A stretch of 64,000 bases of DNA from Curvularia clavata (Eukaryota): assembly GCA_023920165.1 (NCBI GenBank), contig CP089275.1, positions 3,162,001-3,226,000 of the forward strand. The letters are read 5' to 3'. Below are positions 52,151 through 64,000 of the stretch, piece by piece. A model generated the notes under the pieces. It had not been told where the DNA came from. It made no database searches and saw nothing but the letters and a program-made list of their open reading frames with translations. The first letter of the stretch is position 1. The number at the start of each line of letters is the position of its first letter. Made by a program: the position numbers and the translations under genes.

Positions 52151-54140
52151 TTAACCAACACAATAAGCGTTACCGGTAACCAGGTTTGAGCAATCCGTGT
52201 TCACGCCACGGTTGAGCTGGCGGAATCGGCTGACAATTATTCCATATGTGGATGCGATGGATGCACACGTATCGCCTATTAAATTGTCAGCATAATTCTC
52301 AGTTTGTGAAGAAAAAGGGAGCACTGCTGCAAAGAAGAGGGGGAGATGAAAACGCATACCTTGTTTCTGCAAATGCCACTTTGTACATGTGGGAGACGTG
52401 CCGGATTGCGTTGGGCCAGGGGGTCCAGCTGATGTAGGCGACGGAGTGACCGAGATGCGTGTCGTCCAACTGGATGTTGGCGTTGGGGTTTCGATGGCCT
52501 CCACCCACACGCGTACACAGTAAGCCATCTCTGTGCGCAGATTACTGCATGAATCTGTCAAGGACGGATTCCATTCCTTGAAGGATGTATGACTGATCTT
52601 GTATTTGCTCTCAAGCGCTGCGCATGTATCACCCTGTCCAACAACGTGCCATTTGTTGCAGTTTTCCGATGTGCCCAAATTAATGGGAGCTGGTGGCTTC
52701 ACAAAACCCTGAGGGATGATTGTTGAGATAGTCGGATAGCATGATGACGCGATATCTGTTGGGCTGGGCAGAATGGGCCCCGTGGTTATCGGAAAACAGT
52801 ATGGGTCCCACGCGTCGAGGCATGCAGGTCCCAAATCAGATGAGCGCAGGTGATATTCGTCGTCTGCCAAACCCTCGTTCCACTCGTCGGTGTCTTCGCC
52901 CAGAAATGGACAATGCGATGTGCGTGCCCTTATGGCGGAAGCATGTGCATCGCCCGGAGGCGTAAGTGTTGCAGTGGCGATTGGGACTGCCTCCGTGGGG
53001 AAGTCCCACGAGGTTGTGAAATTAAGGGAGCTAGTCGCTTCGTCAGGTGCTGGAGTCCAGACGTAAGTTGGCCCTGTAGTTGTAGAGGGAGCGGAAGTTG
53101 TAACAACGGGATCGAAAGGCGTGGTCTCGCCAGGAGGCGACACACAGATGTACTTGCCCACCATCGCGTACAGGTTGCGGCATTTGTTCCCTACGGTAGG
53201 GTTCCAGCTGCTGAACATGACATCGTTCACGCTCGTGCCGCTGAGTTTCAGAAGCGATGAGCATGTATCTGTTGATAGGACTTGATGGAGCATGCACTTG
53301 GGTACATTGTCCATGCATATCTTTTCACTCCCTGTCAAAGTCTCGTTGGCGGACACAGGTAACTCATTATTAAATGTTAAAAGCCAGTCAGTGGAAACAG
53401 AATTGCTCTTTGCAATGCTGTTAATTGTGTCACCTGATTTTGCAATCAACTGAGATGTGCAGCTGGGCCTGTATATCATTAGATGATGGTTTCCATATGG
53501 ATGCTCAAGACGTACGCTGGTTGCGGGGTGCTACTGGCTTCAGGTTGCTTGACTGGGTATGACGAAGTTGGGATTCCACAAGATTGCTTCATTTCGTTGA
53601 ACTCCTTGGGAGTGAAGCTTTTCATCCCTCCAAGAGGCTCATCGACTTCGAGCTGGACTTTCCGCATGAAGCAATCAGAACAGAGCATGTTCTCGTCAGG
53701 CTTAAGAAATTCTTCTGCACAAAAACCTGCCTTCCGTAATCATTTACGTTAGCGATACGAATACTAGTCAAGAAGCAGTACTCATCTTCGAGGCAGGTCA
53801 CATTGTATTGGAAAACTAGTTGGGCGGCAAGATTGAGAGGGACCAGCATTTCCGAAGTGGTGTTTGTAGTGATGTTAACACTTGTAGTTCCACAAGCAGA
53901 GACGGCTTTGGTATACATGTCAGAGAGAGAATTTCGGCATTGCGTCGTGCAAACTTCGCCCAAGGAAGAGACGTCAATGAACTCTTCAGGATATTGGATC
54001 AAATCTGAGCATCCTGCTAGAGTTTGCGAGAGAGCTGATCGACAAGCCGCTCTGACAGACCCAGGTAAGTATCCCGTTCCTGGAATGACAGAAATTGCAT
54101 TAACAAGGGAAAAAGACAGGAAAAGAGCGAACGCAACCAT
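52151..54140 (-). CDS. Secreted LysM effector: signal peptide, Cys-rich N-domain, four fungal-type LysM domains
   Basis: MVAFALFLSFSLVNA signal. LysMs at AKSGDTINSIA..., STDTCSSL...WNPTVGNKC...YICV, GQGDTCAAL...WNPSLTDSCSNL...AYCV and QGDTCASIA...LNRGVNTDCSNL...AYCV. Introns ~53781-53730 (junction ambiguous), 53515-53469 and 52359-52276. Confidence 0.9.
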
Positions 54141-54667
54141 GTTGCTGAAAAGAGTGGCAGTACACGCTGTTTGCTTCGGGGAGAAATCTCAGCGGGTTGA
54201 AGATAGGGACGAATGTGCACATCGCGACCTCGATATGCGTTCGGCAATCAACGAAGAGGGCCCCAGTCCTGGTTCGAATCTGTTCTTGCATATTGTTGCA
54301 ATACTAAGGCCGTGCCAATCTCGCAACTAAACATTGCCTGATCCTTGGGTAGGCCTGACAATGTCGATCAGAGTGGGCGCCTCGTCACTCGGCTTGACCG
54401 GACCATGCGTAACAAAACGGTATTGGTATTGTAAAGAATTCACTCCACTTTGCCAACGTTAGTGCACTGCCAAGGAACGGGCGGCCGAAGCCGCCCCGTC
54501 TTGGCAACTGGAATATATCACTTACAGGACCAATGAGCGGGCGGGTCTAGTGCAGCACATACAGGAACAGGCAATACCTGCGGCTTGGGCAGGCTTCTGC
54601 TCAAAGCGTCACCCTGTCCACCAGATATTTACCCTCGGCCGTACTAGGTAAAGACCCTGGAAACTGG

Positions 54668-54887
54668 GGCTGCCTCTCCCATGACTGATGAAACCAGAAA
54701 ATGGCAGCCTACAAACCACCAGGTTCAGCAGTAGTTATATTTGTCACAGACACTTATTATTTGCTTTGTTTTAGCATTTACAGGTTTAGTCTTAAAAGTA
54801 GTCATAGTAGTCACAGTCATATTTTACTACGTTGGCGAGCTCGCTCATCTTGGTTTTCCGGTTTTACTGGCTGTGGGAGAGGCCGCC
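54668..54887. mobile_element. Degenerate copy of the inverted-repeat element family in the LysM/chitinase intergenic region
   Basis: 54668-54701 and 54854-54887 form an inverted repeat differing almost only by transitions. 54781-54881 (CAGGTTT...TAAAAG...TCATCTTGGTTTTCCGGTTTTACTGG...GAGAG) is colinear with the right arm 2711-2819. Confidence 0.65.
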
Positions 54888-55837
54888 AATCCTGCTGCGC
54901 CTTCCTCCCAAAAATATCGACAAACAGTTGCTGGAGTTGGCCGACCCTTGAACTGGACGCCTCAATAGATGAGCAGCCCGGGGACTCGGCAGCTTATCCA
55001 TCTTCGTCCTATGTACTCTATGGAAGTTGAACCTAAGAAATAAGCGAGTGCGACAGTTAATATGCCCAGGCTGCAAGGCGCCTTGGAGGTGTTGCTACAA
55101 TCTCGTCAAGGTTGAACTCAAATGATGAAGAGAATGAGCGAGCAAATAGATGGTTGCAGTAAAAGCCTAAGCGTTGACAGTTTTGATTGAAAACTAGCTT
55201 CTCGGAATGGCTAGGATGAACCCAGATGCCTTGAATAGACAGAGCCAGGCATTATTCGACGATATACGTCGACCCTGCGTGTGTTCCCGCATACAGGGTC
55301 TACCGAAACCCGAGTCCACACGTAAATCCTTGATCCTCCGGCATTTGATGTCTACGGAATTCAAGGCAGGTGACCATATGGAGTTGATCCTACGCCTCGG
55401 CTCGACCCACATGGTCATCCTTGTGGAGCCTTGCCGTGCGGTTCGGGCCAGGCTTGGCTCATTTCCACTTGCATTTTTGTCTTCACTCCGTTTTTCGCCA
55501 CTGTTCACAACGGCATTAAAATTTTTCCAGCTATTGCCCGCCTGACGCTATGTCTCATGGTGTGTTCTTGACAGAATTAATGCGGATCCAGGGATTGGAC
55601 AAGGATGAATACCCGGGGGACGAGGGAGGATGGACATCCATTCTTGGGGTACATCTTTGCAGTTATACTCAGCATCGCTGGTTTTGATTCTAATTGTTGT
55701 TTCAATTTTCAACACGACCTTTACTTTGTCACTCTTTTGGTGCACTTGCGGAAGCGCTCGACAGGAGTGCAGACATTCGTTCGCTACTATTTCACTCTTT
55801 TGGATTGTTCTGGTTTCACAACCACCCACCCAGCCAC

Positions 55838-62068: not shown

Positions 62069-63080
62069 TCATCCATCATCCCATCCATTACCCGATCGAT
62101 TGGAGTCGAGATAGTCCATTACGTTCTCTCTCAGATTCTCAATGTCCAGTGGTTCGCCTCCATCCCTCCAGAAGGCCGTATTCTGTCCCACATCAGAAGC
62201 CTTGCACCTGACACGCTTGTGCAATACCTGGCCCTGGTGATTGAGAGCTATCAACAATACCCACCCATCCTCACATGCCTCCCGGTCGGCCACCACTACG
62301 AGCAACGCTTGTGACCACGTGAGTTCCTCGTCTTCCTCTACATCGCGCCCATTGCTACCTTCCATTGCGTCAGGGCACCGTATCAGAGCGCTTAAGATGA
62401 AAGAAGGTATTTCGTCCATTAGTTCCACTTCGTCGTCCGCATCTCGTGCCGATACGCCATAGGCAGCAGCATCGTTATCGAAGACATACGGGCCGAACAT
62501 GCTGTCATCAAACCCATGTTTGTCCAGGGGCCATAAAGCCTTCTGCCATAAACGATCGTAGGCAGCATCGGAACTTGCGCGGGTGACAGTCTCCTTTTTC
62601 GGACTGTCCCTCTCGTCCGCTTCATTGCCATACCATGTTCGAATCCAAATGGCACTGGCGCTGCTCCATTCATCCGGGTCCACTGTTTTGCGCTTCTCAA
62701 ATGCCGACAAATCTTTAGGAATATGGTCAGGGACAGGAATCTGCCCCTCTTCCATGCATCGTTGGATGTAGGCCTAATGGAAAATTTTGTTAGTGAGCTG
62801 TTAGACAGGGTACTCGGGAATTGGGTCGAGAGATCCTACAGAACGACCGTGTCTGCCAAGGCTGATCCATGTTTTCACAAGGCTCTTTTCTTGCTCCTGC
62901 TGGTTGAGGATCGATTCTGGATCCCACTTTTCCTTTGGGAAATGTCAGCTACTATCGGTCGTGTTGGAATGGCCCGCCTTGGGTAGTAATCAGGTGCTAG
63001 GGACTGGTCAGGCGTACCACGAGGAAATGATCAAATGGCATGTAGCCAAATATATCCTCCAGCCCGTGCGAAGTAGTCAT
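62069..63080 (-). CDS. Acidic non-secreted hypothetical protein (~286 aa); candidate immunity factor
   Basis: Proposed exons 63080-63018, 62932-62840, 62773-62069 (GT-AG, both introns phase 0). No signal peptide; Asp/Glu-rich; motifs IWIRTWY and LLVVVADREACEDGWVLLIALNHQGQV. The gene is well supported; its function is inference. Confidence 0.75.
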
Positions 63081-63702
63081 TGTAGTCGATACAGTATAAG
63101 GCACAGTGAAGGGTGGTGTGCAAGGTTGTGGACCAAGACGATGAAATAGCCCCAGGCGAGATGACTATATGTCGCCAAGCAACCGATAGATATGCAGGAG
63201 TTGGTAAAGACTGGGGACGACTGGGGGCCTCGATCTCCATGCGGATGGGTCCGTCTTGGCAACCGCACTAGTTTATTTACACTCAATTCAGTACGATGGC
63301 TCAGATTTCTTACAGAGTGGGGCATTTTTGTTACAGTAACTTGATTGGCGGATGAGGCAACGTGATCCTACAGCATCGATATGTCATGGTAGATTAATCG
63401 CCTTCAGGCCTTCCGCGGGCCAGGTTGTATGCAGGGCAGTGCATGTACTAGCACCGCAAAGTGCGAACAATAGTTCACTGCGAAATGAGCGCGTCTAAAG
63501 ATGGTAACATGCGAGAAAATTGTACGACGTCAGATGATAATGAGCTAACCGAGTAGGTTTCTCAGCTGGAAGGCTCATGGGAGAGGTGAAATAGCGGGCT
63601 TATGTGTCCAGCGAAGATATCAATCTCAAAACTATATCTATGGCTGGCCGTCGACATCTTTGTGAATGAAAGCACGCCTGTCCAGTTCCTCACTTCGTCA
63701 AT

Positions 63703-64000
63703 ATGTTGGCCAACACATTCCTTCTCGCGACTTTCGCGTCCACACTCATTAGCCCGTCTTTGGCTAGAACATTGAAAAGAGATGAAAAGCCTCTACTCCC
63801 TTACGATCCAAACACCACAAAGTACTGCACTTGGTGGTACGAGAACGATGGTTCGGTAGCTTGTAATCAGATGCCTGCTACCTGGGCCATTACTTTAGAA
63901 GACTTTATGCGATGGGTAAGCTATGTTCTCGAAAGCGTTGCAAAACTCAAGAATAATTGCTCAACTATTCTATAGAACCCTTCCATCACCGCTCAATGCG
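63703..64000 (+). CDS. Second secreted LysM-domain protein, 5' part; runs off the window end
   Basis: Signal peptide MLANTFLLATFASTLISPSLA, Kex2-type LKR, then PYDPNTTKYCTWW...C...WAITLEDFMRW|NPSITAQC (intron 63916-63975), a fungal Cys-type LysM. Confidence 0.85.

Follow-up and report, generated by a model that had tools for sequence, protein, structure and literature searches.

A candidate killer-toxin locus occupies the end of a 64,000-nucleotide stretch of DNA from the plant-associated fungus Curvularia clavata (contig CP089275.1, positions 3,162,001 to 3,226,000), hereafter the window. Its core is a pair of convergent genes, one for a large CBM18-GH18 chitinase with a predicted nuclease domain of the NucA/NucB type at its C-terminus, and one for a small acidic protein that appears to be cytosolic. 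The two genes lie next to each other in fungi of two classes, and they are transcribed and spliced along with the two secreted LysM or LysM-like genes that flank them. We give about an even chance to the reading that this locus encodes a chromosomal relative of zymocin, a killer toxin made as one chain that includes a NucB-type DNase, together with an immunity protein of a new family, whose genes also stand alone in lineages that lack the toxin. An earlier sequence-only reading had described four tightly packed genes here and proposed that they form a toxin/antidote cassette. The description of the genes was borne out in every point that could be checked, since all four predicted genes were located where that reading had placed them and together they fill 52151-64000 of the window: a LysM gene at 52151-54140 (minus strand), the chitinase at 55838-61845 (plus), the acidic gene at 62069-63080 (minus) and a LysM-like gene from 63703. 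Gene models were built from stop-to-stop frames and GT...AG boundaries. The features of the core pair are as follows.

55838..61845, plus strand: chitinase-nuclease gene, 13 exons, 1792 amino acids (gene model, six introns confirmed by RNA, homologues)
55913-56070, plus strand: second CBM18-like Cys motif (motif)
56075..56220, plus strand: CBM18 chitin-binding module (PF00187, E 7.6e-13)
56228..57397, plus strand: GH18 catalytic domain (PF00704, E 2.4e-69 on the deposited protein P0001)
56615-56638, plus strand: intact DGIDLDWE (DxxDxDxE) GH18 motif (sequence)
59017..59022, plus strand: dibasic site EKR/WWG, K988-R989, candidate Kex2-type cleavage site (KR or RR in 14 of 15 aligned homologues)
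60350..60355, plus strand: dibasic site IDKR/AE, K1348-R1349, candidate release site of the C-terminal fragment (KR or RR in 15 of 15, Arg invariant)
60530..61619, plus strand: C-terminal domain, about 330 amino acids, with introns 60925-60970 and 60996-61048 (PF14040, structural model, NucB structural match)
60905..60910, plus strand: Asp1533-Glu1534 in SCDEFPFN, proposed to correspond to Asp93-Glu94 of NucB (invariant in 15 of 15)
61103-61105, plus strand: Asn1566, proposed metal-binding residue, counterpart of NucB N117 (invariant in 15 of 15)
62069..63080, minus strand: candidate immunity/inhibitor gene, P0015 = yc1106_02861, 286 amino acids, isoelectric point (pI) 4.47 (exons 63080-63018, 62932-62840 and 62773-62069)

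The C-terminal nuclease motif that had been proposed for the CBM18-GH18 chitinase from the sequence was upheld by profile, fold and conservation. PF14040 (DNase_NucA_NucB) matched P0001 with 26.9 bits against a cut-off of 23.8. Ten homologues were scanned with the same profile; eight passed, one reached 23.7 bits, and one gave no match yet keeps the motif. An AlphaFold2 (AF2) model of the last 385 chitinase residues (predicted local distance difference test score, pLDDT, 67.7) was aligned against 48,161 representative chains, and the best match was Bacillus licheniformis NucB (6ejs_A; Z 5.1, root-mean-square deviation 2.8 Å, 106 of 109 residues). NucB was the sole outstanding match, as the runner-up had a Z of 2.3. 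According to the model, the C-terminal domain would comprise a beta-beta-alpha metal nuclease fold of the NucA/NucB type and a beta-rich subdomain of about 115 further residues, confidently modelled and of no assigned fold. A sequence search of the PDB with the nuclease part returned only chance netrin-receptor rows (E about 2.4). The motifs NW[LF]SCDEFPFN and CVPGYQQxxQ..N are kept in all 15 aligned homologues. NucB is described as a DNase that is secreted, acts non-specifically and degrades biofilm. [quoted passage not shown] By motif likeness, without superposition, we infer that D1533, E1534 and N1566 of the chitinase correspond to D93, E94 and N117. Judged by the profile, the structural match and the conserved motif together, the predicted nuclease domain is real.

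The rest of the chitinase has the layout of a secreted carrier. Along the 1792-residue model, which contains 63 cysteines, a signal peptide is followed by CBM18, GH18, a Cys-rich region, a conserved middle region, the NucB-like DNase domain and an acidic/basic tail; secretion was judged from the hydrophobic N-terminus. Exon 10 is 100% identical to the deposited "hypothetical protein yc1106_02860" (P0001, 1664 amino acids), which differs from the new model in having a wrong first exon and in skipping a 17-residue stretch. The first 29 residues of P0001 come from a frame at about 53740-54330, on the strand opposite to the LysM gene, with the result that the signal peptide and CBM18 are lost. The new model was preferred because the homologues have the signal peptide, the CBM18 module and the 17-residue stretch, and by this comparison the deposited 5' gene model appears to be wrong. 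The GH18 DxxDxDxE motif is kept in all 14 homologues that cover the region. LysM (PF01476) matched no exon frame of the chitinase, nor P0001, and among the ten scanned homologues only P0009 has one; a chitinase that carries no LysM would fit the description of the C-I type, a comparison made by description rather than by tree.

Conserved dibasic sites divide this protein into a wall-binding and hydrolysing part, a conserved middle of about 360 residues and a nuclease part. The IDKR/AE site lies upstream of a Cys knot and the nuclease domain, and a third site, SKR with an acidic stretch after it, occurs in most homologues. Cleavage at the conserved sites would parallel the processing layout of zymocin. 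The middle region matched no Pfam family, and a language-model search points weakly to DUF7223 proteins.

The convergent acidic gene lies 223 bp from the chitinase stop, close to the 220 bp first estimated. P0015 has no hydrophobic stretch at its N-terminus and no signal peptide in its sequence. It matched no Pfam family. Across the partner family as a whole, Pfam gave sub-threshold noise, the sole lead being DUF6924, seen in 2 of the 36 members; its best match had an E of 0.03 and scored 15.1 bits, with the cut-off at 24.4. A language-model row for DUF6924 had a score of 0.91 and was carried by 14% of members, which makes it a lead only; no mention of DUF6924 was found in the literature. Acidity is a family trait, with a pI of 4.1-4.8 in all eight members computed, and the conserved motifs are WIRTW[YF]G, CPD, VADRxACExGWVL, RVRxKA and GDGWD. 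An exhaustive profile search with the family yielded 115 clusters at E <= 0.001, of which 28 reached E <= 1e-30, and every member that could be named is from an ascomycete. A pattern scan for bacterial or archaeal relatives, made with one pattern of low sensitivity, found none. Prediction of a complex between the nuclease domain (P0001 residues 1280-1612) and P0015, run without alignments, scored 0.00 and speaks neither for nor against binding. Two oddities of family membership were also noted. In the 601-residue P0106 from Aspergillus californicus, the partner domain occupies positions 348-581 after about 347 residues without a Pfam family, which points to a fusion or to a merged gene model. 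Six further proteins of about 270-290 residues (P0184, P0188, P0192, P0196, P0198 and P0200) align with no more than about the first 100 positions of the partner profile, a hint that the partner N-terminus may be a separate module common to other proteins.

We asked how often the two core genes occur together in other fungi, scoring adjacency by consecutive locus tags or GenBank accessions. A chitinase-nuclease homologue was present in 15 species and a partner-family member in 10 of these. The two genes are adjacent in seven of the ten species that have both, and these cases span Dothideomycetes and Eurotiomycetes, with four families of Pleosporales plus Onygenales and Eurotiales.

Curvularia clavata: yc1106_02860/61, adjacent
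Pyrenophora teres (several strains): KAE8846391/92, adjacent
Amniculicola lignicola: KAF2004068/69, adjacent
Dendryphion nanum: KAH7122763/64, adjacent
Lophiotrema nucula: KAF2119715/16, adjacent
Polytolypa hystricis: PGH27224/25, adjacent
Penicillium angulare: KAJ5096659/60, adjacent

The two genes are thus linked across two classes. Metagenome loci provided a further sample: 18 were fetched with the partner-family profile, and 15 were assessable in that they had at least 1 kb, or a match, downstream. In two of them (L001 and L017), tblastn revealed a chitinase C-terminus convergent with the small gene. L017 reproduces the layout of the window, with a LysM gene, the small gene and a PF14040-bearing chitinase end in the same orientation, and its small protein is 35% identical to P0015. 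Where the small gene stands alone in metagenome loci, its neighbours are ordinary genes (GNAT_LYC1, fructosamine kinase, Pyr_redox_2, MFS and HET). Most of these lone loci are 62-65% identical and Alternaria-like, and they are partly redundant near-duplicates of one lineage. Named lone copies occur in Alternaria, Boeremia, Epicoccum, Ascochyta, Dothidotthia and Lizonia, from which our search returned no chitinase, a weak form of evidence for its absence. Two lone copies have a gene with a heterokaryon incompatibility (HET) domain no more than a few kb away (L009:5097-7097, minus strand, and L018:2368-3615, plus strand), possibly by chance; HET genes are very numerous in such fungi, and for that reason these two were set aside. 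A 649-residue frame convergent with the lone partner gene of L005 was considered as an alternative toxin and rejected, as it is multi-pass membrane-like, has no Pfam family and is unlike the chitinase.

The pattern of descent was examined with a 30-row tree of the partner and a 15-row tree of the nuclease domain. In each of them Pleosporaceae, the other Pleosporales and eurotiomycetes form separate groups, and such matching splits fit joint vertical descent of the two sequences; Lindgomyces groups with the eurotiomycetes in the nuclease tree. Over seven linked pairs, mean pairwise identity was 0.67 for GH18, 0.64 for the middle region, 0.50 for the nuclease and 0.43 for the partner. This is the order expected if cargo and antidote evolve fastest, an agreement that falls short of proof. 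All 15 retrieved homologues carry the same nuclease; the query was itself C-terminal, so the search could find the same domain only. On this material we tentatively suggest, at somewhat below an even chance, an ancient and vertically inherited family of single-chain chitinase-DNase toxins, older than the split between Dothideomycetes and Eurotiomycetes and accompanied by a new acidic cytosolic immunity family, in which lineages such as Alternaria and Didymellaceae would have kept the immunity gene against their neighbours after losing the toxin. Within the partner tree, Curvularia and Pyrenophora group with Didymellaceae (Boeremia, Epicoccum and Ascochyta) and not with Alternaria of their own family (support 86/95), a grouping that could stem from old paralogy or from a higher rate of change in the Alternaria copies that stand alone.

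Transcription was assessed from public-run contigs aligned to 52000-64000. Spliced RNA contigs from a single run, X1, cover all four genes. The RNA splice joints are exact at 6 of the 12 predicted chitinase introns, including both introns of the nuclease domain and the last intron. Further exact joints fall at the two introns of the small gene (run X1), at three of the first LysM gene and at one of the second. Contigs of run X14 continue across introns, as DNA would. Since the contigs carry no expression levels, neither expression levels nor co-regulation can be read from them.

The remaining features of the locus are the flanking genes and the gaps between genes.

52151..54140, minus strand: gene for a LysM-only secreted protein, 602 amino acids, four exons (Pfam LysM, gene model, four LysM-like motifs, spliced RNA contigs of runs X1, X2 and X13)
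54141..55837, no strand: divergent intergenic region of 1697 bp between the first LysM gene and the chitinase (two start codons)
61846..62068, no strand: gap of 223 bp between the convergent stop codons (gene models)
63703..64000, plus strand: second secreted LysM-like gene, start only because the window end cuts the gene; intron 63916-63975 (sequence, splice joint in X1, X2 and X13)

The first LysM gene has introns at 52276-52359, 53469-53515 and 53736-53785, and its product has a hydrophobic N-terminus and four Cys-bounded LysM-like motifs; Pfam LysM matched with E 7.8e-17, in three stretches on the largest exon frame. Its intron at 53736-53785 (minus strand) has AT...AC ends (ATGAGT...TTAC on the coding strand) and not GT...AG. 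It is removed in an X1 RNA contig, placement is unambiguous and the frame is kept, on the basis of that one contig. The further LysM gene that had been placed about 620 bp beyond the acidic gene starts at 63703, 622 bp past it. It encodes a signal-like N-terminus and one fungal LysM-like motif across an intron; a Pfam scan of the fragment gave no match, so the name LysM is taken from the motif alone. The gene at the equivalent position in L017 does match Pfam LysM. Contigs of X1, X2 and X14 match only the 63805-63837 piece and diverge on both sides of it, which points to a strain difference or to a LysM paralogue. No independent frame of at least 80 residues that could represent a separate small secreted gamma-toxin gene was present in the gaps of 1697, 223 and 622 bp, which leaves room for a very small gene. 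Farther upstream in the window, a Csf1/BLTP1-type bulk lipid transfer protein is encoded by a single open frame of 3245 residues (40752-50489, plus strand), itself preceded by SNF2, PI4-kinase and DASH Ask1 genes. These are core genes, and they place the cluster in a core rather than an accessory region.

As a killer toxin, the locus would work in the following way. The 1792-residue precursor would be secreted, and its CBM18 and GH18 modules would bind and cut chitin in the wall of a competitor. It would probably be cleaved at the conserved Lys-Arg sites, like the zymocin alpha/beta precursor. The cargo, carried at the C-terminus of the precursor itself, would be a Mg-dependent DNase of the NucB type with Glu as general base, and would replace the separately encoded tRNase subunit. 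In the producer, the acidic cytosolic neighbour, a member of a new family, would bind and block the nuclease, and partner copies without a chitinase would act as stand-alone protection genes. The flanking LysM-only genes would be part of the cluster, genes of this kind being present in known chitinase toxin clusters too.

Several observations weigh against this scheme. Four of its steps, namely cleavage of the precursor, uptake, toxicity of the DNase and its inhibition by the partner, are inferred. The nuclease call is modest (26.9 bits against 23.8, Z 5.1), Foldseek of the C-terminal model against the PDB gave nothing at E <= 0.001, and the column of NucB His53, placed by eye without superposition, holds histidine in only 8 of 15 homologues. 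For the partner, an AF2 model of P0015 made from 14 sequences had a pLDDT of 36 and was unusable, and profiles A1 and A3 of the family found nothing at E <= 10 among solved chains, Nin included. Convergent genes share no promoter. Moreover, secreted proteins of eukaryotes normally stay out of contact with the cytosol, and an antidote that acts there requires the extra assumption of re-entry. Linkage, too, has exceptions. Judging from locus tags and the lengths of the contigs, both genes are present on different contigs in Penicillium concentricum, Aspergillus spectabilis and A. californicus, and the partner was not seen in five further species with the chitinase (Exserohilum, Lindgomyces, A. 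cavernicola, A. tetrazonus and Nannizzia), for which the lists are non-exhaustive. In 13 of the 15 assessable metagenome loci the small gene has no chitinase beside it, over flanks of about 1.1-10 kb that reach at least 4.5 kb in six. Lone copies are well conserved, at 58-80% identity, which would fit a cellular role unrelated to a toxin as well. The expectation that the downstream gene is tied to this chitinase type in other genomes is largely borne out, holding for seven of ten species in two classes and for L017, but not for the three species in which the genes are split or for these 13 loci. Likewise, of the toxin/antidote cassette first proposed, the nuclease domain, the linkage and the transcription of all four genes in one run have found support, whereas strict pairing has not.

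Other explanations of the same locus have to be set beside the toxin reading. The chitinase-DNase might be an extracellular digestive or matrix-degrading enzyme that undergoes no delivery and targets walls, extracellular DNA, biofilm matrix or host extracellular traps, in which case the neighbour would protect against nuclease that ends up in the wrong place, or would be unrelated. NucB itself is secreted and degrades biofilm, as the accessible text on it states (PMC5758888), and no sequence feature of the chitinase demonstrates membrane translocation, the middle region offering no known family beyond its weak DUF7223 lead. We nonetheless regard a purely extracellular enzyme as unlikely, if still a serious contender: it is hard on this account to explain a cytosolic-looking neighbour kept adjacent across two classes, group C chitinases are homologous to toxin-delivery subunits and related clusters encode proven intracellular toxins, and the dibasic sites bracket the middle module in the manner of alpha/beta processing sites. 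Adjacency, for its part, reveals coupling and not the nature of that coupling, and the small protein could be a helper in folding, secretion or processing, a regulator, or some other partner in a shared pathway. No fold or family can be assigned to it, and many well-conserved copies have no chitinase, both of which leave room for such a role. Yet a protein that has no signal peptide cannot travel with the precursor through the secretory pathway, and the partner evolves faster than any part of the chitinase. Strong acidity of the kind seen in all eight computed members is typical of nucleic-acid-mimicking proteins such as barstar and colicin immunity proteins. A coupled partner that is no inhibitor therefore seems to us quite improbable.

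Finally, the neighbourhood might reflect passive conserved synteny, with the small gene an unrelated and lineage-restricted one. Curvularia and Pyrenophora share one family, and their adjacency means little alone; the surroundings in the window are core genes, and most metagenome copies are unlinked. Against this stand the adjacent pairs in Onygenales, Eurotiales and four Pleosporales families, together with L017, in which both the orientation and the LysM gene recur. By our own estimate, reasoned from about ten thousand genes rather than computed, chance adjacency would arise about 2 times in 10,000 per genome. We consider mere synteny very improbable, and the toxin reading remains the one that we prefer.

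Group C chitinases have long been suspected of antifungal delivery, and it was only in 2024 that separate ribonuclease toxins and immunity genes were reported beside C-II chitinases. As far as the available parts of that work go, Heneghan, Salzberg and Wolfe describe nuclear clusters in Pezizomycotina in which LysM-bearing C-II chitinases are joined by small ribonuclease toxins encoded separately, by immunity genes of the plasmid type and by LysM-only genes, with none found in Dothideomycetes (bioRxiv 10.1101/2024.10.25.620242); they note chitinases fused to Hce2 effector domains and, in the accessible text, no nuclease fusion (bioRxiv 10.1101/2024.10.25.620242; mGem). The GBE 2026 paper contains none of the terms "DNase", "nuclease domain" and "Dothideomycetes", and the 2021 chitinase evolution paper has neither "nuclease" nor "C-terminal". 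A full-text literature search found no paper joining PF14040 to chitinase or "NucA NucB" to GH18, and a search that combined polymorphic toxin, chitinase, fungal immunity protein and nuclease returned bacterial work only. The GH18 and PF14040 domain pair is already visible in precomputed Pfam annotations of public proteins. The locus suggests a second design, in which the cargo is a DNase fused to its carrier and has its own new antidote family. If this is true, killer-toxin biology would reach beyond plasmid-derived C-II systems that attack RNA and take in DNA-targeting ones, whose chitinases lack LysM, in a class without reported cases that holds many cereal pathogens. The reading would provide a directly testable toxin/antidote pair, could explain a conserved orphan gene retained in many fungi, and would offer the gene pair as markers for fungus-fungus competition on plants.

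Among known systems, the locus resembles bacterial polymorphic toxin/immunity cassettes in having a secreted multi-domain protein that ends in a nuclease and, next to it, an acidic cytosolic partner that also occurs alone in genomes without the toxin, and in that the putative toxin and partner change faster than the delivery part. It differs from them in being eukaryotic, in having convergent, separately transcribed genes, and in the single nuclease type among the 15 homologues that the C-terminal query retrieved. With Bacillus NucA/NucB and Nin it shares the PF14040 family, the fold match to 6ejs and, going by the available part of the NucB paper, the inhibitor gene that adjoins nucA; the Bacillus nucleases, however, are free proteins of 110 amino acids, and the fungal partner has no sequence similarity at E <= 10 to Nin or to solved chains. 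Subgroup C chitinases with Hce2 domains (A. nidulans ChiC2-2, T. virens TVC3, and N. crassa GH18-6 and GH18-8) offer an earlier example of a group C chitinase to which a cytotoxic "effector" domain is fused, although in the accessible accounts the fused domain is Hce2 and no nuclease, and the loci keep a separate Tox-P3 toxin gene. Zymocin of Kluyveromyces lactis (pGKL1) likewise combines a chitinase-bearing precursor, dibasic sites, a nuclease cargo and an adjacent immunity gene, for which we have a candidate here, but its genes are intronless and lie on a cytosolic plasmid, its three subunits include a separate gamma tRNase, and its target is tRNA rather than DNA. In the C-II clusters, according to the portion of the preprint available, a separate small secreted ribonuclease is disulphide-linked to a chitinase that carries LysM domains, and the immunity genes resemble those of killer plasmids; in C. 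clavata, by contrast, a predicted NucB-type DNase is fused to a chitinase with CBM18 and no LysM, the neighbour is without a known family and the host is a dothideomycete. In other respects the two are alike, both being nuclear and intron-bearing, with a large secreted GH18 chitinase, a nuclease, a cytosolic immunity gene (a candidate here) and LysM-only genes, and with a probable role in antagonism of fungus against fungus.

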